Positions 1 through 62,048 of a stretch of DNA of 64,000 bases are shown in pieces. A program made the position numbers and the translations under genes. Each line of letters starts with the position of its first letter. Positions within the stretch are counted from its first letter, which is position 1. Below the pieces are notes generated by a model that made no database searches, had not been told where the DNA came from, and saw nothing but the letters and a program-made list of their open reading frames with translations. The DNA lies in the IMG/VR virus record IMGVR_UViG_3300046321_000098, positions 1 through 64,000 of that record. One strand, given 5' to 3'. The stretch is from a virus.

Positions 1-1311
1 CCTCGAACAAGGGGTGTGATATTCCGTAAGACAACAAAACAACTTAGTAACAGTGGCGGTCTTTTTGATGCAGCTATCCAACTATATAAAAAAGTTGACC
101 CAAATTTAAAGATTAGAAACCGTGACTTAGAGATCATATTCAGTTCTGGTGCTACACTTAAATTTGCATATCTGGATAATCCCTCTGATAAGTACAATTG
201 GCAGGGCGCAGAGCTGAACTTTCTTGGTTTTGACGAAATTCAGCAGCTTTCCAGAGCTAACGTAGTCTATCTTTTCAGTAGATTACGGTCAACATCTGTG
301 GACTTCAAGAAGCAAATCTTTGCTACAGGCAACCCTGACTACGATTCATTCATTCGTGAATGGGTTGAATACTCTTTAGACGAAAGAGGTATTCCTATCT
401 TGAAGGACGAATATCCTAATAGATACTTTGTTCAGGTATCAGGTGGTGGAATGGAGTGGTCAGATTCAAGAGAAGAGTTGGAGAAGATACACGGTGAAGG
501 CGGTGAGTCAGGTATTATGAGCTTCAAGTTTGTACCTGGGAATATATACAGTAATCCTGTATTAATGAAGAATGACCCCAGCTATATCTCTAAGTTAAAA
601 GCTCTTCCCTTGGTAGAAAAAGAGCGTCTACTTTATGGCTCTTGGTACGCACGAGAAAGTGCATCAGGTTATTGGAAAGAACACTGGACGACCGAAGTTC
701 TTTATCCACCAGCTAGGGTCTTAAAACGAGTTCGTTGTTGGGATTTGTCTTTCACAAAACCAAATGAATCGAGTTCAAAGAACCCTGACTACACAGCGGG
801 TGTACTGATGTCAAAAGACACAAAAGCACTGTACACCGTTGAGGATGTTGTCCGTATCCGAGACAGAGCGCACGTTGTTGAGGAGCTTATTCTTAACACA
901 GCAAAAGCAGACGGTAACAACGTAATTGTCGGGTTACCGCTCGACCCCGCTGGTGGTGGAGCTTATGCAAAAGGCTTACAGAAACGCCTACTTGAAGCTG
1001 GTTTCATCTGCAGATTGGTTAAACCTGTGAAAGCGAAGGTTCAACGTTTCGCACCGTTCGCAGCAGTAGCAGAGGGCGGTTTTGTGAGTATTGTAAAGGG
1101 TGATTGGAACTCGGAATATCACCGTGAACTAGAAACATTTGATGGTTCTAATAAATTTAAGGACGATCAAGCCGATGCCTCTAGTGATTGTTTTGCTTTG
1201 TTAAACAAGCAACAAAACCTCCCCTCCTTCCAACTCCCCAACCTAACCCAATCCACCCAATTCGGCTTCCAATCTTCACAAATCCCATCCGACCTAGTAA
1301 CACCCCTCTAG
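1..1311 (+). CDS. terL: Terminase large subunit (5'-partial)
   Basis: Walker B LGFDE, ATGNP coupling motif, C-terminal RNase H-like nuclease (WDLS...DYTAG...DDQADA); frame open from base 1. Confidence 0.95.
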   Translation, partial: PRTRGVIFRKTTKQLSNSGGLFDAAIQLYKKVDPNLKIRNRDLEIIFSSGATLKFAYLDNPSDKYNWQGAELNFLGFDEIQQLSRANVVYLFSRLRSTSVDFKKQIFATGNPDYDSFIREWVEYSLDERGIPILKDEYPNRYFVQVSGGGMEWSDSREELEKIHGEGGESGIMSFKFVPGNIYSNPVLMKNDPSYISKLKALPLVEKERLLYGSWYARESASGYWKEHWTTEVLYPPARVLKRVRCWDLSFTKPNESSSKNPDYTAGVLMSKDTKALYTVEDVVRIRDRAHVVEELILNTAKADGNNVIVGLPLDPAGGGAYAKGLQKRLLEAGFICRLVKPVKAKVQRFAPFAAVAEGGFVSIVKGDWNSEYHRELETFDGSNKFKDDQADASSDCFALLNKQQNLPSFQLPNLTQSTQFGFQSSQIPSDLVTPL

Positions 1312-1334
1312 GCTTAAAACATTCAGGTTATTAA

Positions 1335-2795
1335 ATGACAAGAAAACAAATAAAAAAAGCTCAATCATCATTAGATAAACCTGAACCGTTTCAACTAGGT
1401 GAGATGGGAATATCTGGTGCTCCAATCTTTGCAGGCATTCCAGCCAACGAGATTAAGCGAGAGCTGAATTTTCCTACTAACTTGACAACGTTTAAAAAGA
1501 TGATGTTGCATCCAGCAGTGAATGCAAGTATGTCATTGCATAAATCAATGTTAAGCAAGGCAACCTTCCGTGTCTTACCTTGCAAGAATCCTACAGCAAA
1601 AGAGAAGTTCCAAGCTAAGAAGATTGAAGAAATGCTTACTGACATGGATACACCTTTGGAGGATGTTGTTTCCTCCAGCTTGTCAGCATTGGAATATGGT
1701 TTCGCCCCACTTGAAAAAGTGTTTCGCTTACGGGAAAAAGCCTTTGGGTCTAAATACAGTGATGGATTGATTGGTGTCAAAAAGTTAGCCTTACGACACC
1801 AAGAGTCAATTGACACCTTCATCTTCGATGATGAAGGTAACGAAGTCCTCGGTTTGAAACAAAGCTTGACGAATGTAAATGACCCAATGGGGCGTTACAC
1901 TAAATGTGCCAAGGGTGACATTGTGTTACCCCGTGAGAAGTTCATGCTTTTTACCGTAGGTAACGACAAGAGTAATCCTTATGGAACTAGCCCTTTGAGG
2001 AATGTTTTTTTACCGTGGAAGTATTTGCAAGCGATTGAGGAACTTGAGGCAAGTGGCATTGCCAAGGATCTAGCTGGACTACCTTTTATTCGCATCCCTG
2101 CTCAAATGATGTCAGCCGATGCAAGTACAGAGCAGAAGCTTGCTTTTGAGCAATTCAAAGCAATCGGACGTAATCTACAAAACAACGCACAAGCTTGTGT
2201 AATCTTACCAAGTGATTGTGACCCTGATACACGTCAACCTTTGTTCAGTTTAGAGTTACTGGAAAACGTATCAAAGAAGAGTTTCAACACTACCGATGTG
2301 AAGTCCTACTACCGTGAGATGATTTTCATTGGGTTGAGTGCTGATTTGTTGCTGATGGGAAACACAACCACAGGTTCATTTGCATTGGGTGCAATTAAGC
2401 AATCCTTGACAGGTGCAACCGTCGAAGGCTACCTCAAAAACATTGTTCAAACATTCAACCTTGATTTGATTAAACACTTGTACGAGTTGAACAGCTGGGA
2501 TGTCAGCCGCATGTGCGAACTGGATTTTGAGGGGTTCGAAGATGTGGATTTAGACTCCTTTAGTAAGTCAATCCAACGAATTGGGTCTGTAGGTTATCTC
2601 CCACGTACACTAGATGTCGTCAACGACATTCTAAGAAAGCACGGATTAGACGCACTGCCAGAAGGTACTGAACTGGATGATATTTTACCAGAGAAAACAT
2701 CGAAAGCCTCAGAAGGCATGAAAACTGCTGCTGACGGTACAGCCAATGAAGTTACTGGTAAAGACTCTGCTAGTTTGAATACCGAGAATAGTTGA
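1335..2795 (+). CDS. Portal protein
   Basis: 486 aa directly after terL; YGFAPLEKVF and NPYGTSPLR motifs typical of DUF935/Mu gp29-like portals. Confidence 0.9.
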   Translation: MTRKQIKKAQSSLDKPEPFQLGEMGISGAPIFAGIPANEIKRELNFPTNLTTFKKMMLHPAVNASMSLHKSMLSKATFRVLPCKNPTAKEKFQAKKIEEMLTDMDTPLEDVVSSSLSALEYGFAPLEKVFRLREKAFGSKYSDGLIGVKKLALRHQESIDTFIFDDEGNEVLGLKQSLTNVNDPMGRYTKCAKGDIVLPREKFMLFTVGNDKSNPYGTSPLRNVFLPWKYLQAIEELEASGIAKDLAGLPFIRIPAQMMSADASTEQKLAFEQFKAIGRNLQNNAQACVILPSDCDPDTRQPLFSLELLENVSKKSFNTTDVKSYYREMIFIGLSADLLLMGNTTTGSFALGAIKQSLTGATVEGYLKNIVQTFNLDLIKHLYELNSWDVSRMCELDFEGFEDVDLDSFSKSIQRIGSVGYLPRTLDVVNDILRKHGLDALPEGTELDDILPEKTSKASEGMKTAADGTANEVTGKDSASLNTENS

Positions 2796-2820
2796 TATTT
2801 GTAACATTTCGTGTTACAAT
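2792..2820 (+). promoter_or_regulatory. Sigma70-like promoter with embedded TGTAAC..GTTACA palindrome
   Basis: TTGATA-17nt-TACAAT; TGTAACA-N5-TGTTACA overlaps spacer and -10. Confidence 0.65.
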
Positions 2821-2828
2821 TGTAGATT

Positions 2829-2916
2829 GACAACGGCTAGGGTCATTCCCGAAAAGAAGATTAGTTACCTTCCTGCCTGTTGTTTTATTAGTAACTTCCA
2901 TTAACTAAGGAATACA
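2829..2916 (+). ncRNA. Structured RNA leader (three-way junction, anti-RBS loop), copy 1
   Basis: P1 2829-2837/2875-2884, GGG-TCATT-CCC, GAAG-loop-CTTC; similar to 14288-14376. Confidence 0.7.
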
Positions 2917-3510
2917 ATGACAAAGATACTTAAGAAATATGAGTTAAATAGGGAGTATGTAGTTCAGATATTAGAGTATGAACCACAAACTGGTGAATTT
3001 TTCTGGCTAGTACCCAAGGCAATGAGAGTTAACATTGGAGACTTAGCGGGTAACTATCGTAAGCAAAGTGGATATGTAACAATTAGTATTGATAATGTAG
3101 ACTACAAAGCGCATCACTTAGTCTGGTTGTACCATTATGGAGTTTTCCCTGTACTAGAGATTGACCACATAGACGGTAATCGAGCGAATAATAGGGTGGA
3201 TAATCTAAGAGAGGTCACATCCTCTACCAACGCAATGAATCGTAAAATGAGGGAAGATTGTTCATCAGGGGTCACTGGGGTAAGCCTGAGAAGAGGAAAA
3301 GGGAGAAACGGGAATCCATATCACGCATGGGTGGCGTTCTGGTGTGATTCAGACGGTAAACAGCGGTTTAAGAATTTTGCTGTAATCAAATACGGGTTTG
3401 ATACCGCCAAGCAAATGGCAATATCCTACAGAGAAGCACGTATACGTGAACTAAACACAGCAGGCGCTGATTACACAGAAAGACATGGAAAGCAATGTTC
3501 ACAGCATTAA
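2917..3510 (+). CDS. HNH homing endonuclease with AP2-like C-terminal domain
   Basis: YKAHHLVW...IDHIDGNRANNRVDNLR; SSGVTGVS. Confidence 0.92.
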   Translation: MTKILKKYELNREYVVQILEYEPQTGEFFWLVPKAMRVNIGDLAGNYRKQSGYVTISIDNVDYKAHHLVWLYHYGVFPVLEIDHIDGNRANNRVDNLREVTSSTNAMNRKMREDCSSGVTGVSLRRGKGRNGNPYHAWVAFWCDSDGKQRFKNFAVIKYGFDTAKQMAISYREARIRELNTAGADYTERHGKQCSQH

Positions 3511-4148
3511 ACACTCTCCCCTCATTAGAGGGGAAACCTAGAGACATTCGTGTACTCTTTGCAGACACAGCTAATACAGCCTTAAATTCAGGACGCTCGG
3601 AAGATGAAGCAATTTTTAAGGGTTTAGCTGTCGTAAAGCAAGCAGAGCAGTTCAGTATTAAAAAATACACCAGACCTGTTATCCCTTTGCACTTACAAGC
3701 AATACTAGACCTCAAGAATGCTCCTAAACCCTCTAAAGAAGAGCTACAAGAGCTTGAAAAAGCAAATGAACCTGTAAGTAGCTTACAAGCTGGAAAAGAG
3801 ATTGTTAGTGCTGAATTTGACTATCAAGGACGTTTAACATTAAAGTTCAAGGATGGTAAGAAAATCATCAGCAATGTTGCCCCTGTTACAGCGGTGCAGA
3901 ACACAGTTGTTGTTACAGCCTCAGGTGGCACGGGAACAATCAGTACTGAAACAGAGGGACTTGATGAGCTTACCTACAGCGGAGAGGATTTACAAAGAGT
4001 GGACTACGCAGATGGTACATATAAGCTCTTGTATTGGACGAATGGCGTCTTGGAGTATGTAGACCACTTCCAAACAGACCAAACAGTTCGTAAGACTCTT
4101 AACTACACACTTGGGGTATTGACCTCGGTTTTAACAGAAATATTATAA
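3495..4148 (+). CDS. Probable head-associated protein, ChaB-like N-terminus plus beta-rich C-terminal extension
   Basis: LPSL...LFADTANTAL...EDEAIFKGLAVVK resembles the ChaB helical motif; position after portal. Confidence 0.5.
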   Translation: MFTALNTLPSLEGKPRDIRVLFADTANTALNSGRSEDEAIFKGLAVVKQAEQFSIKKYTRPVIPLHLQAILDLKNAPKPSKEELQELEKANEPVSSLQAGKEIVSAEFDYQGRLTLKFKDGKKIISNVAPVTAVQNTVVVTASGGTGTISTETEGLDELTYSGEDLQRVDYADGTYKLLYWTNGVLEYVDHFQTDQTVRKTLNYTLGVLTSVLTEIL

Positions 4149-4149
4149 A

Positions 4150-6744
4150 ATGACAGCATATACTCTAGCAGCTAACGCAAATTTGAGACAGGTGGGTACT
4201 GCAGGTGTATGGGGTGTGGTAACTGCGAGAACTGGCGGTGATACAGTAGATAGTAATGGATTCAATTTAACAATAGACCAAGACACAAGGTACGGTTTTA
4301 GTGGTACAACTTCTACAAGTTTTGGCTCTATAACCATTAACGCAAACAAAGGTGGTCAATTAAATATTGATGCTAGGTTTGTTCGTATGATACCGTTTAC
4401 AGGTGGCTCTGGGACAATTACTGCAGGTACGACAATTACTTGCGGCTCAGGTACTGGGGCAGTCATTGGGTTATATTCCTCATTAACAACTGCTCCAGTG
4501 TTAACAGGAGTGGCATCAGGTTGGATTAAAGTAACCGCTTGGAACGGTATATCTTTTCCTACCAGTGGTACATTTACTCAGGCAGGTTATACATTCACAA
4601 TCTCAGGTGCAAGCATTGTAGGGTTTATTGAGGTGGTGGGAGATGAAGCTGGGACGATTGTAGCAAATCGATTAGGTTCAGTGAACATCACAGGGGAGTG
4701 GTTTGAGGTTGGCACAACATCAGGCTCCTCTGCTACGACTTACCAGCTTCCCACCAATGGTGCTATTCAATACTACCCATCATTATGGGTGGAGACAGGT
4801 GTAGGTACAGGTGTATATGAATCTTATCCGAACTCTGGCTCTTTGGTTGCAGCAAGTTCTACACCAACAGACGCAGTACGTGGTAAGTTCTGCTGGACAA
4901 CTACAGCAGGGGTGCTACGATTCGGCTCAGACGGAACAAACACTGTAGGTTATCTCCCACCAGCAGGGTTAAAAATCCGCTTACCAAATATCCTTTTAAA
5001 CAATTGCACCACGGCAGCAAGGACTGCAAATGTCTTACCAAACGCTACCTTAGCAACAAGGTACGATTTTACCTGTACTGGCGGTGGCGTTGTAAACATC
5101 AACAAAGCTAACTGTAACTGGTATCCAAGTTTTAACCAAGCATTTTCTGTAAATCTTAGCTACACAGGCATCGCAGAGCAACTACTTGTTTCTGAGATTG
5201 CTCAACCTTGCATTTGGGATAATGTTGCTGTGGGACAATCCGCAGCACAGGCTCAAATTGCTTTATCCATGTCCTTGTGCTTTGCAGGTGGAACAATTAG
5301 TAATTGTAATTTTACTCGTGCAACTCAGGCTACAGCTCTGGCTGTACGGACACTTACAGATATTTCAGATTTTGTGTTCACTGGGAATCGTTGGAGGTCT
5401 AGGGTTCTTCGTGCTGCTGCGAATACAATGATGGCAACTGATACTAGGGTTGCAGATTGTACGTTCACAAATGAAGTGACTATGGGGCAGATTAACCTTG
5501 TGACCTGTACTAATGTAACGTACACAAACCGCGTTTACTATGACCAACTTATAGCAACTACAGCAACCAATCCTTTAAGTGCTTGGGCTTTGTCTTCAAA
5601 CTGCGTAAATATTAAATTAGATGGTTTAACTTTTGGAGGGTTGACAAATGCTCACCCTTACACAGCTATCCTAAGTATTGCTGCTGCAGGGTGTACAGGT
5701 ATTAAATTAAGAAACATCGGCACAAGCCTTGTGCCGTTGAGTCTAGGTTCTGCAAATGCAACAGGTTTGATATACACCCTTGCCGCTGGTGCTGCTGCCT
5801 CTGATGTTAAAGTACAAAGGGTTTACTGCTCGAACACTAGAATAGGTGTTATGACAGGAGACAACTCCAGTACACGAGTGGTGGAAGAGAGTGTTTTTGG
5901 GGACTATGCTAATGCAGCTGTTGTTGCCGCTGTTTTAAACTACACTAGAAAAGGTAGAGGCGGTACGATAGCTGTTACAGCACAAACTGCTATTTACGGT
6001 ACACATTGGTACGACTGCTACACAAGCACAACAGCAGGACGTATTGGTTTAATGATGAATGAGGCAACATCATTAACCTCGTCTCAGATTACTTTGACAA
6101 ACGGTGCAGCGTTTACTTCAACAGGTGGTTTGTACATGCCAACAATAGGTATGACAGCCCTCTTTGAGATACCTTATTACCTAATTGGTCATACTGGGTT
6201 TCAGAACTCACCTGCTATTATGGCAGGGGGTACATCTACTAACTACACGTATGGTTTTCAGATAGATAAGAATGACGGTGCTGGTTGGAGTACATTAACT
6301 TCTGGTTCTACGACTACAACTCTTGCAACTGCTTTAAATGCTTTAACAGGTATTAATGCATTACTGGGGTTTAAGCTGAGAATCAAGATTACAACTACAG
6401 TTGCAAACACTACAGCTATAACCTCATTCTATTTACTCACCAGCTCAACTACAACAACTCAGGGTTATCAGTATCCATTAGAGACTAATACTTTCACCTT
6501 GACTGGGTTAGTATCAGGGTCAGATATTGTGATAAAGACAAGTGATACAAACACAGCATTGGTTAACGTAGACCAGAACCTGACAGACTCTTACGGCTAT
6601 GTTTATACTTTCACTCCGAGTACTTATGTGGATATAAAAGTGATAAAAGCTGGTTATATCCCTTATCAAGTCTATGACTACCTTCTCAGTAGTGCCGATG
6701 CTTCACTACCTATCGCTCAAGTTATAGACAGGAATTATGTATGA
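4150..6744 (+). CDS. Large Thr/Gly-rich beta-helix-like probable virion protein
   Basis: 864 aa, T/G/S/A-rich, central repeats like GTISNCNF/DCTFTN/TNVTYTN, ends DRNYV. Confidence 0.6.
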   Translation: MTAYTLAANANLRQVGTAGVWGVVTARTGGDTVDSNGFNLTIDQDTRYGFSGTTSTSFGSITINANKGGQLNIDARFVRMIPFTGGSGTITAGTTITCGSGTGAVIGLYSSLTTAPVLTGVASGWIKVTAWNGISFPTSGTFTQAGYTFTISGASIVGFIEVVGDEAGTIVANRLGSVNITGEWFEVGTTSGSSATTYQLPTNGAIQYYPSLWVETGVGTGVYESYPNSGSLVAASSTPTDAVRGKFCWTTTAGVLRFGSDGTNTVGYLPPAGLKIRLPNILLNNCTTAARTANVLPNATLATRYDFTCTGGGVVNINKANCNWYPSFNQAFSVNLSYTGIAEQLLVSEIAQPCIWDNVAVGQSAAQAQIALSMSLCFAGGTISNCNFTRATQATALAVRTLTDISDFVFTGNRWRSRVLRAAANTMMATDTRVADCTFTNEVTMGQINLVTCTNVTYTNRVYYDQLIATTATNPLSAWALSSNCVNIKLDGLTFGGLTNAHPYTAILSIAAAGCTGIKLRNIGTSLVPLSLGSANATGLIYTLAAGAAASDVKVQRVYCSNTRIGVMTGDNSSTRVVEESVFGDYANAAVVAAVLNYTRKGRGGTIAVTAQTAIYGTHWYDCYTSTTAGRIGLMMNEATSLTSSQITLTNGAAFTSTGGLYMPTIGMTALFEIPYYLIGHTGFQNSPAIMAGGTSTNYTYGFQIDKNDGAGWSTLTSGSTTTTLATALNALTGINALLGFKLRIKITTTVANTTAITSFYLLTSSTTTTQGYQYPLETNTFTLTGLVSGSDIVIKTSDTNTALVNVDQNLTDSYGYVYTFTPSTYVDIKVIKAGYIPYQVYDYLLSSADASLPIAQVIDRNYV

Positions 6745-14281: not shown

Positions 14282-14287
14282 GTTTAT

Positions 14288-14376
14288 AAACAGGCTAGGG
14301 GTTGCTCCCGAAACAGAAGAGTCATTACCTTCTCTTGCCTTGTTTTCTTTTTAGTAATGTTCTTTAATGGAGAAGT
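14288..14376 (+). ncRNA. Structured RNA leader (three-way junction, anti-RBS loop), copy 2
   Basis: GGCTAGGG..CCCGAAA.AGAAGA..TTACCTTC..TGCCT core shared with 2829-2916. Confidence 0.7.
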
Positions 14377-15147
14377 ATGCTTTTATTAACAAAAGACAAA
14401 TTGAACCAAATACTTAAGCAAAATCGTGGAAAATCTTACACTTATGGGCTGTGTCGTGGTTCAGGGGATTTATTCTATGTGGGTGTAGGGATACGCCAAA
14501 GAGTTCTTAATCATACCTATGAACATGAACTAAATCGTGGTGGGAATAAGCATAAAATAAGTATTATTAAAAGAAAATAAAACATACTTTAGACTGTTAT
14601 TTTTTAATTCTCTTTTAATAAGGATAGAGCAGTTTGTCTTGAGGTGGAAAAAGATTTAATAAGAAAGTTTGGACGTTCAGATATCCAAACAGGCTCACTG
14701 ACAAACTTGACAAATGGCGGTGAAATTGGCGCAAACGGTGTGGTTGTTTCTGCTGAAACTAGATTAAAACTCTCCGAAAAAGTACAGGAAAGAGTTGAAG
14801 TAATAAGAGAACAACAACGCGAACGCTGGAAAATTTTAACAGAGGATGAGAAACTGCAACGCATCCTTAACATGACGCGCGGCAGTGGTACTCCTGAGCA
14901 TCTTGCTAAGTTATCAAAGGCACAACTGAAAAAGTGGAGTAATCCAGAGTACAAAAAACGTCTCTCGAAGATACAAGTAACAGCCCAAGGTGCTCTTGCA
15001 GAAGACCATAGAAGAAGAACAACAGCTTACTGGGCAAACCCAGAAAACAAAGAAAAACGATTAGAACAGAATAGGTTACGAAGGGCTGCAAAGTTAAGTA
15101 ACCCTGTCTTGAGTCCGATAGAAGAACGGGTTGCTGTACCCACTTAA
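14377..15147 (+). pseudogene. GIY-YIG-like homing endonuclease, interrupted
   Basis: YTYGL...FYVGVG..R...H and E..LI...GR.D...G.LTNLTNGGE are in the same frame but separated by three in-frame stops at 14578-14607. Confidence 0.75.
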
Positions 15148-17407: not shown

Positions 17408-17414
17408 TAAGATT

Positions 17415-17503
17415 AACAGCGTCAGTCGTAGGCATACGCGCAAGTGAAGTTCTGCTCCAACAGAGACTCATCTGATGTTTGTTTTAAAATGTTTTGGAGG
17501 ACA
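17415..17503 (+). ncRNA. Structured RNA leader with anti-SD loop, different sequence family
   Basis: P1 17415-17425/17472-17483, CGTA-GGCA-TACG, loop CTCCAA complementary to TTGGAG at 17494-17499. Confidence 0.6.
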
Positions 17504-18019
17504 ATGGTGGAAATTAATAAGAACAAAGCACTTTCACAAGACGAGTGGAAAGCATTGGTAGACTACAACCCAGACACAGGTGTCTTTGTTTGGAAAGTTA
17601 ATCGTTATCGCACACAAGCTGGTGACATTGCAGGTTACCGTAAACCTAACGGGTATATCTCTATTCGTACAAACAAGAAGCATCATCCATGTCACCGAAT
17701 AGCTTGGATAATTACGTATGGTGTTGATACTGATGGGTTCATAGACCACATTAACGGTGACAAAAGTGACAACAGAATTGTAAATTTACGTGTAGCTAAT
17801 AAGTCCGCGAATGGGTTTAATACTACAAAACGTGCTAACAATACATCAGGTTACAAAGGTGTCACTTGGCACAAACAAATTGGTAAGTGGGCAGCTCGTG
17901 CAAAAGTAAACTATGAGTGTTATCACTTAGGGTTATTTGATGACGTACTAGAAGCTGCTAAAGCATACGACGATTTTGCGAAAGCAAACCACGGCGAATT
18001 TTACAAAGATAATCTATAA
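17504..18019 (+). CDS. HNH-AP2 homing endonuclease
   Basis: HRIAW...IDHINGDKSDNRIVNLR; NTSGYKGV...HLGLF; start reassigned to ATG after GGAGG. Confidence 0.92.
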   Translation: MVEINKNKALSQDEWKALVDYNPDTGVFVWKVNRYRTQAGDIAGYRKPNGYISIRTNKKHHPCHRIAWIITYGVDTDGFIDHINGDKSDNRIVNLRVANKSANGFNTTKRANNTSGYKGVTWHKQIGKWAARAKVNYECYHLGLFDDVLEAAKAYDDFAKANHGEFYKDNL

Positions 18020-42361: not shown

Positions 42362-43284
42362 GTTATACAACAGAACAACAAAAAGCAATTACATTTTTAA
42401 AGCAATCAGGGTTATCTAGCCGTGCAATTGCAAATGAGTTAGACATCTCTAAATCTGGAGTTAATTATTTCCTAGCACGAGAAACGGAAGTAGTTGTTAA
42501 AAGCAAAGAACCTAGGATTCTTATCTTAGACTTAGAAACAGCAGCAGCAGTTGCTATGACTTTTGGCAGGTTTAAAATTAACCTCGGGCAAGACAACATT
42601 GTGTCAGAAGGTGGTTGGATTATGTGCGCGAGCTGGCAATGGCTAGGTGAAGACGTGGTTCATAGCATTGCACTCACACCCACTGAAGTCGCTGCATGTG
42701 ATGATTCCCGTATCATTGCAACCTTTTGGGAGCTTTACGAGCAAGCCGATGCTATTGTGGCGCACAATGCGCTTCAGTTTGACCATAAAGTTTTACAAGC
42801 TCGTACAGCATTCAATGGCTTCCCTCCTTTACCGACTGTCAAGGTGCTAGACACACTGGTGCTTGCAAAGAAGCATTTACGCTTACCAAGTAACAAACTG
42901 GACTCAATAGGAGAATATTTTGGTCTTGGACGTAAAATCGACAACGGTGGAATCTCCCTCTGGAAGCGAGTTCAAAGCGGCGAGAAGGCAGCAATGAAGG
43001 AGATGGTGGAATACTGCGAACAGGACACACGATTGCTTACAGAGGTTTATTTACGCTTACGTGCGATAGGTCACGCTGGTTCGGACTTCAATGCAGGGTT
43101 GTATCACGATGATGATAAGAAACGGTGCCGACGCTGTGGTTCTGAGCATGTGCATGAAACAGGGCGAACCAGTAATACATCTTTAAGTGTGTTTACTGAG
43201 TACCGTTGTAATGATTGTGGTGCGACACAGAGGGACAGAGTTTCAATAACAACAAAAGCTAAACGTGCTGTGTTATTAATGTAA
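42358..43284 (+). CDS. HTH plus RNase H-like DEDDy exonuclease with C-terminal zinc ribbon
   Basis: ILDLET, AHNALQFD, SNKLD, YCEQD, CxxC...CxxC. Confidence 0.85.
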   Translation: MSYTTEQQKAITFLKQSGLSSRAIANELDISKSGVNYFLARETEVVVKSKEPRILILDLETAAAVAMTFGRFKINLGQDNIVSEGGWIMCASWQWLGEDVVHSIALTPTEVAACDDSRIIATFWELYEQADAIVAHNALQFDHKVLQARTAFNGFPPLPTVKVLDTLVLAKKHLRLPSNKLDSIGEYFGLGRKIDNGGISLWKRVQSGEKAAMKEMVEYCEQDTRLLTEVYLRLRAIGHAGSDFNAGLYHDDDKKRCRRCGSEHVHETGRTSNTSLSVFTEYRCNDCGATQRDRVSITTKAKRAVLLM

Positions 43285-43348
43285 ATTATGATGTAGTAAC
43301 TCCTGTAAATTATGATTTTCACAGGAGTTTTAATTTTAGGAGTTAAAT

Positions 43349-43864
43349 GTGCTTACACAGAATTACTTAAAAGAGGTCTTGGAGTACAACGCAGGACAAG
43401 GGCAGTTTTACTGGATAAAGAAAACCTCTTCAAAAAGTAGAATAAAAGTCGGAGTTATTGCGGGTAATTTAAACATAGATGGTTATAGACGAATTAAGAT
43501 TTGTGGTAAGAAGTACCAAGAACATCTTCTTGTATGGTTCTATAACTACGGATATTTCCCTATTAAGGTACTTGACCATATTGACGGTAATCCATCTAAT
43601 AACAGACTGGAAAATCTAAGAGAGTGTTCCCAAAGTGAGAATAATAGGAATAAAGGAATAGCTGTTAACAACACAACAGGTTTCAGAGGAGTAACTTACT
43701 GCAAGAAGAAGAAAAAGTTCAAGTCTACGGCTTGCTTAAATGGTAAAAAGATTCATCTTGGTTATTTCTCCACTGGTGAGGAAGCCTCTCTCGTTTGTGA
43801 AGCCGCAACAAAGGATCTACACGGAGAATTTTACAGAGATACAACAAAAGATGTAAAAATCTGA
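43349..43864 (+). CDS. HNH-AP2 homing endonuclease
   Basis: LDHIDGNPSNNRLENLR; NTTGFRGV...HLGYF. Confidence 0.92.
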   Translation: MLTQNYLKEVLEYNAGQGQFYWIKKTSSKSRIKVGVIAGNLNIDGYRRIKICGKKYQEHLLVWFYNYGYFPIKVLDHIDGNPSNNRLENLRECSQSENNRNKGIAVNNTTGFRGVTYCKKKKKFKSTACLNGKKIHLGYFSTGEEASLVCEAATKDLHGEFYRDTTKDVKI

Positions 43865-61973: not shown

Positions 61974-62048
61974 ACGCCTATAGCTCAATGGACAGAGCCT
62001 CAACCTTCTAAGTTGATTATCCAAGTTCGATTCTTGGTAGGTGTACCA
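61974..62048 (+). tRNA. tRNA-Arg(TCT)
   Basis: Full cloverleaf; TCAAC-CT-TCT-AA-GTTGA; encoded CCA. Confidence 0.93.

Follow-up and report, generated by a model that had tools for sequence, protein, structure and literature searches.

In the phage genome studied here, a small structured leader RNA precedes an HNH homing-endonuclease-type gene, and the apical loop of its third stem is complementary to two sites shortly before the start codon, the second of which overlaps the Shine-Dalgarno (SD) sequence. The predicted RNA is a divergent int-alpA-type RNA that scores below the formal cut-off of its Rfam family, and in related leaders the loop and its target sites change together. The leader probably throttles translation of the HNH gene through pairing of the loop with the SD region, with the distal site as a competing decoy, and mainly within read-through RNA. 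Both the lowering of translation by this pairing and its action in cis are inferences.

The window, by which we mean the whole 64,000-nucleotide stretch that was analysed, covers the first 64 kb of a virus record that is 82 kb long and has direct terminal repeats. Near-identical DNA is present in freshwater metagenome runs, and contigs from an RNA run that are about 90% alike match window positions 1000-2452; a blastn search of 2300-4200 against phage records returned zero matches. The genes and spacings of the locus, together with a tRNA gene found elsewhere in the window, are as follows.

Ending at 1311: terminase large subunit gene
1335-2795: portal gene, Mu-type, with its stop codon TGA at 2793-2795
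Portal stop to HNH start: gap of 121 nt
2917-3510, + strand: HNH_3 and AP2 homing-endonuclease-type gene, 197 aa (Pfam HNH_3 1.6e-16, AP2 6.5e-9; PHROG 99 'HNH endonuclease' 3e-44)
From ATG 3495: orf217 (217 aa), starting within the 3' end of the HNH gene, the last HNH codons overlapping
61974-62048: tRNA-Arg, anticodon TCT

The gap between portal and HNH gene is filled by a candidate promoter, the leader and a 32-nt spacer that carries both target sites.

2792-2820, + strand: sigma-70-like promoter TTGATA-17-TACAAT with extended TG, 10 of 12 consensus matches
2830-2883, + strand: three-way-junction RNA (int-alpA match, own model R1, MFE fold)
2830-2837/2875-2883: stem P1, with U2878 bulged
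2838-2839: junction strand J12, UA
2840-2850: stem P2, GGG/CCC, with loop UCAUU
2851-2855: junction strand J23, GAAAA
2856-2872: stem P3, GAAG/CUUC
2860-2868, + strand: P3 loop AUUAGUUAC, 9 nt, the variable 'address' loop
2873-2874: junction strand J31, CU
2884-2890, + strand: U-rich tail UUUAUUA after P1
2891-2896, + strand: site 1, distal, candidate decoy, GUAACU, complement of loop bases 2863-2868
2902-2908, + strand: site 2, proximal, UAACUAA, complement of loop bases 2861-2867, overlapping the SD
2907-2911: SD, AAGGA
2917: start codon ATG of the HNH gene

The portal stop falls within the -35 hexamer of the candidate promoter, and the predicted RNA start, at about 2826-2829, lies at the foot of P1, as the original prediction from the letters of the DNA had it; the spacing of -10-like boxes in related leaders agrees with this start. 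In a strain variant (run X4) the sequence upstream of 2826 differs: it has a consensus TATAAT box, and the palindrome described below is altered; the leader is unchanged in the contigs aligned. That a loop faces two downstream targets, the second on the SD, is likewise borne out by the sequence. Each site is perfectly complementary to a part of the loop, and the two parts overlap, so that one loop holds one site at once. The copy-1 pairings are short and AU-rich, at about -5 kcal/mol each, and one 7-nt plus a separate 6-nt loop complement occurred in 22 of 20,000 shuffles of the 32-nt spacer.

The three-way junction proposed at the outset is the MFE fold (RNAfold) and is also supported by a full-length int-alpA alignment. 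Its fold energy is ordinary relative to shuffled sequence (z of -0.89 and -1.27), and the z-scores are not significant for this copy, for the second copy in the genome, for the leader of a related phage (L203) or for a further structure at 17412-17510. Since the junction is energetically no better than shuffles, thermodynamics by itself proves nothing here. The MFE structure of 2826-2925 also includes a local hairpin at 2885-2920, in which UUCC pairs with the GGAA of the SD. Loop pairing could conceivably activate or time translation, either by opening this hairpin, which would hide the SD and AUG, or by building a ribosome standby platform; pairing at the distal site would indeed disrupt the hairpin, and IsrK activates its target according to the excerpted text of PMC4825925. 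However, the hairpin comes from a single MFE of ordinary energy, and in the window, as commonly among its relatives, the proximal site overlaps the SD or directly adjoins it, so that pairing there should block the ribosome. Hence, we find activation quite unlikely and favor throttling.

A permissive cmscan returned one credible match for the leader, int-alpA (RF02996) at 2831-2896 with 26.8 bits, and E values of 6.5e-4 to 2.5e-3 for the stretch searched and 6.9e-5 for the genome. The match does not reach the RF02996 gathering cut-off of 35.8 bits and is absent from the gathering-threshold scan of the window. All of the model is aligned (positions 1-71 of 71, with P1, P2 and P3 covered), the consensus junction bases CUAG, CGAAAAG and CCUG are all identical, and UUUUAUUA aligns with the consensus u run 3' of P1. 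Shared with int-alpA are the junction bases (C-G closing pair, UA, G-C, GAAAA, G-C, CU), a variable, roughly 9-nt P3 loop and the U-rich tail, whereas the window leader differs in its AU-rich P1 and P3, its 3-bp P2, its sub-threshold score and its context, a portal/HNH junction in a lytic-type structural module. Our own model R1, which excludes the window and rests on 113 leaders of a set retrieved by a window-derived pattern, gives the window leader 44.0 bits (E 2e-12). Among 17 loci tested with leaders from the window's junction pattern, 6 leaders exceed the Rfam int-alpA cut-off, including L057, which precedes an HNH_3 relative, and L215, from a phage with a portal 54% identical. The putative RNA at 2830-2883 is, on these grounds, a divergent int-alpA-type RNA below the formal cut-off. 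The identity suggested earlier, C4 or c4-2, did not hold: no C4, c4-2 or c4-a1b1 match was found at E<=10 over 2500-3200 or at E<=1 over 2780-2960, and the Rfam search gave the sub-threshold int-alpA match instead.

The int-alpA RNA motif reportedly originates from the survey of Weinberg et al. 2017, and its name derives from an integrase/alpA gene neighborhood. No such neighborhood was found here, the neighbors being the terminase, portal and HNH genes and orf217. The name int-alpA does not occur in the main text of the 2017 survey (PMC5737381). Rfam types the family as 'Gene; sRNA', and our literature search found no published int-alpA function, the name being used for gene order or as a table entry without a mechanism. 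The reading of loop, decoy and SD is an addition to the family, for which no function was found in the literature.

The junction pattern is present in 2 of 80 loci encoding HNH relatives, and in both the P3 loop matched two downstream sites. A tighter junction pattern yielded at least 120 viral stretches, and among the matches listed 123 leaders were parsed, 116 of them distinct. Conservation of the junction bases in this set is by construction, because the retrieval pattern fixes them, and the five stem pairs that it also fixes are uninformative for covariation. Across the 116 leaders listed, 87.9% of stem cells are paired compared with 66.7% in shuffles, and two-sided stem changes are found in 338 cells compared with 118.5 in shuffles and 29-80 with slid partners. 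R1 also recovers leaders with altered junctions, beyond the reach of the fixed pattern, in which the two-site signature is kept. Of 120 pattern matches in genome contigs, 42 have a valid structure, and their sources span many bacterial phyla, with Planctomycetota, Bacillota and Saccharibacteria among them; the other 78 are such as chance would be expected to give in 596 Gb.

An open frame starts within 140 nt in 120 of the 123 leaders listed, and in 107 of these 120 the start codon lies 20-49 nt after P1; a start codon and open frame at so short a distance are in keeping with a leader rather than an independent sRNA gene. In 48 of the 116 leaders listed, the end of a -10-like box lies 15-16 nt upstream of the C of CUAG (17 nt in the window), and a U-rich tract lies 3' of P1 in 61 of the 116, compared with 5 of 116 control stretches. 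In the window, the corresponding tail at 2884-2890 would be a linker or else a weak terminator tract. The 113 distinct downstream products of the leaders listed fall into 34 Pfam families, among them DUF1376 (36), HNH_3 (9), HNH (3) and HNH_5 (2), and also Rha, Dam and antirepressors; Phage_integrase accounts for 1 of the 113 downstream proteins, counted among the first 25 of the 34 families. The downstream genes show that the int-alpA-type element travels with selfish nuclease genes and with early/replication genes (DUF1376). Portability had been part of the original prediction, and it agrees both with the 34 families and with the position of the window leader in an inserted cassette (see below).

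Loop-target covariation, on which the pairing idea had been staked beforehand, is found in the family. The P3 loop is hypervariable, with 79 distinct loops among 102 leaders listed. A loop match of at least 6 nt is present in 72 of 116 cognate pairs (62%) compared with 6.4% of 13,260 non-cognate pairs, and a second, separate site of at least 5 nt in 56 of 116 (48%) compared with 3.3%, both among the leaders listed. With one representative for each of the 79 loops, the distal duplex energy is -5.79 compared with -2.81 +/- 0.19 for permuted loops and UTRs, and the proximal energy is -7.59 compared with -4.50 +/- 0.21; neither observed value was reached in 2000 permutations (0/2000). The complementarity is found only in the antisense orientation and only within the 5'UTR, and none is seen in the 70 nt upstream or in the first 70 nt of coding sequence in the family.

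Relative to the start codon, site positions are bimodal, with clusters at about -23 to -19 and -10 to -3. Among 108 leaders listed, a distal site of at least 5 nt is found in 83 (25 are without one; 10.8% in non-cognate pairs), a proximal site of at least 5 nt in 64 (44 are without one; 14.5% in non-cognate pairs) and both in 48 (2.7% in non-cognate pairs). The two pairings share at least 4 loop bases in 49 of 53 two-site leaders, and in 30 of the 53 the proximal pairing is shifted by +1, the same shift as in the window. Neither site is generally the stronger (distal in 41, proximal in 43, similar in 18 of 102 leaders). Joint change is seen in leader L216, the loop of which, AUUAGUCAC, is one base off the window loop, with the matching base altered in both of its sites, GTGACT and GACTA. 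Mismatch counts, compared so as to tell RNA pairing from DNA repeats, do not separate the two (53 observed and 38 expected for G-U, and 87 and 74 for A-C).

One further motif lies beside the leader. Between the -35 and -10 boxes there is a perfect palindrome, TGTAACA-TTTCG-TGTTACA at 2800-2818, which has GTAAC/GTTAC in common with the P3 loop and both sites; it may be an operator or a coincidence. As a third target of the loop, in the manner of seqA of P4, the palindrome was rejected, given that the family is without enrichment upstream of the leader. GTAAC or GTTAC occurs five times in 2800-2908, so the three short repeats (one inverted, two direct) could, together with the palindrome, be DNA sites for a protein. 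This is highly improbable: the repeats are only 5-7 nt long, the inverted copy is always in the apical loop of a hairpin with a covarying stem, and there is no cognate enrichment upstream of the leader in the family, which makes the palindrome peculiar to the window copy.

The arrangement at the portal junction differs between related phages, which were found with a profile of 24 portal homologs; exact peptide patterns confirmed none. In two of them, L202 and L205 (portals 70% and 66% identical), a homolog of orf217 begins no more than about 15-25 nt from the portal stop, with no HNH gene and no leader. In two others, L203 and L204, the same junction holds a promoter-like TTGAAA-17-TATAAT, a three-way junction with J23 GACA(A) and a different HNH gene, 46% identical; the loop CUUCGUAAA of this leader has the sites TTACG and TTACGAAG, and the second of these continues into GAAGGA. 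The empty junction in the first pair and the other cassette in the second show that the following segment of the window is an insertion that includes the leader.

2796-3494, + strand: inserted cassette of promoter, leader and HNH gene, between the portal stop and the orf217 start

By comparison of these junctions, promoter, leader and HNH gene make up one inserted cassette, and the loop and both of its targets differ together between the two cassettes.

The genome carries a second, more divergent leader.

14284-14354, + strand: leader copy 2 (R1 32.0 bits, E 4e-8), with J23 GAAAC and a 3-nt J31
14320-14328: P3 loop of copy 2, AGUCAUUAC
14354-14359: first site, GTAATG
14365-14370: second site, TAATGG
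14377: start codon ATG

The site starts are 11 nt apart, as in copy 1. Copy 2 is located between the tail terminator and tail tube genes and is without a promoter-like site directly upstream. Downstream of it, one frame (in 14284-15147) holds ORFs of 67 aa and 167 aa with three in-frame stops between them, and the 167-aa ORF has a weak PHROG 'homing endonuclease' match, so that the whole looks like a decayed nuclease gene with its leader retained. GIY-YIG was rejected as the identity of the ORF after copy 2, with no Pfam GIY-YIG match genome-wide and none for the 67-aa ORF. The cognate loop-site duplexes of copy 2 have energies of -3.8 and -3.3 kcal/mol; cross-copy duplexes have -0.1 to -1.9 kcal/mol compared with -3.3 to -5.1 for cognate ones over both copies. 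When the genome was scanned with relaxed structural rules, copy 1 alone was recovered; copy 2, with its J23 GAAAC and 3-nt J31, escaped the scan.

Eight HNH_3 matches lie in the 82-kb genome, six of them above the cut-off (positions 3103, 17690, 33784, 43523, 54779, 59935, 76868 on the minus strand and 78980), and the phage appears, by these matches, to be heavily colonized by nuclease genes. Among these, only the gene at 2917 has an int-alpA-type leader, which means that such a leader is not required for carrying an HNH_3 gene. Two other structures were noted before HNH genes. At 17412-17510, a three-way junction with a GGCA tetraloop has a loop, CUCCAA, that complements the sequence UUGGAG, located at the SD of the 17504 HNH gene; it has one site only, a z of +1.0 and is undetected by R1. 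At 43270-43350, before another HNH_3 gene, a simple hairpin, AACUCCUG...CAGGAGUU, has a U/A-rich run after it, and its 5' arm also complements AGGAGUU at the SD, a decoy/SD logic without a three-way junction.

In the throttling mechanism that we favor, the conserved three-way junction would present the P3 loop, which would pair with one or the other of its matched sites in the 32-nt spacer that precedes the start codon. Proximal pairing would cover the SD region and block 30S binding, whereas distal pairing would leave the SD free as a decoy, and the balance between the two would set a low level of HNH translation. The original prediction also had the leader keep a toxic nuclease quiet in a highly expressed late operon, and this part of it is an inference. 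The main rival, which we regard as rather unlikely, is that many transcripts stop at the P1/U-tract and release a free RNA of about 60 nt, the loop of which binds and represses read-through mRNAs in trans and copy-specifically. A promoter positioned for an RNA start at P1, the U-rich tract in 61 of the 116 leaders listed, the diversity of loops on near-identical scaffolds, the orthogonality by duplex energy of the two copies in this genome and the Rfam type 'Gene; sRNA' would all suit such an antisense RNA, and two sites per loop would suit two RNA molecules bound per mRNA. There are also precedents in IsrK and in P4 CI with seqA and seqC (PMC4825925, excerpted text). However, a simple terminator scan reported no terminator at the leader, copy 2 is without a promoter-like site directly upstream, and nearly all leaders listed have a gene downstream at a short, fixed distance. 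Moreover, both copies lie inside strings of structural genes, where an efficient terminator would cut off the genes downstream, and this argues for action in read-through RNA. Activation and DNA sites for a protein are both less likely than the trans-acting RNA.

A broader version of the trans-acting idea is speculative and, in our judgment, unlikely: the int-alpA scaffold could be a universal programmable riboregulator of mobile genes, with a fixed junction, an evolving loop and two addresses in its own 5'UTR (decoy and SD), from which free RNAs of about 60 nt silence their own read-through mRNA in trans. If so, each selfish cassette would have a private, host-independent dose control of the C4/CI/IsrK type.

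Throttling within the leader has parallels in known systems. In T4-type endonuclease genes, RNA structure over the SD limits translation (I-TevI, I-TevII, I-TevIII, segB and mobE), and a late promoter inside the inhibitory hairpin yields a shorter, relieved RNA, as described in the excerpted text of PMC2988022. The window locus resembles these in having a selfish nuclease gene amid phage genes and a predicted RNA structure over the SD. However, the T4 elements are simple local hairpins, whereas the window leader is a conserved three-way junction with a loop that has two alternative sites. The T4-type scheme that had been drawn on earlier does not carry over in its promoter, given that no promoter was found inside the putative inhibitory structure and that the sole promoter-like site, 2792-2820, precedes the entire leader.

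The other parallel is with phage immunity-type RNAs. C4 uses two loops, and the targets of P4 CI flank the RNA on either side. In contrast, the window leader gives no match to the C4 model of P1/P7, has one loop with two downstream sites and is without a link to immunity. What it has in common with C4, CI and IsrK, as these are presented in the excerpted sources, is a small, structured, leader-encoded RNA with a loop that complements sites on the same transcript. In the excerpted text of PMC4825925, P4 CI has two targets, seqA and seqC, and IsrK of Gifsy-1 acts on its own read-through mRNA. According to that of PMC8198154, C4 is a repressor of the icd/ant operon.

The int-alpA locus and its relatives offer a testable mechanism, in which one loop has two mutually exclusive targets of similar strength, one of them on the ribosome-binding site. 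If confirmed, it would provide a compact natural part for setting translation levels, and it would help to explain how homing endonuclease cassettes are tolerated in essential structural operons.

Among the related phages, the terminase match is in two pieces in several, and group I introns (RF00028, 65-70 bits) were found just upstream of or within the terminase region, at 1805-2050 in L203 and at 2024-2328 in L215. The isrJ RNA is located in the IsrK locus of Gifsy-1. At 5951-6101 in L052, an isrJ match (RF01393, 60.8 bits) stops 8 nt short of an int-alpA leader scoring above the cut-off.
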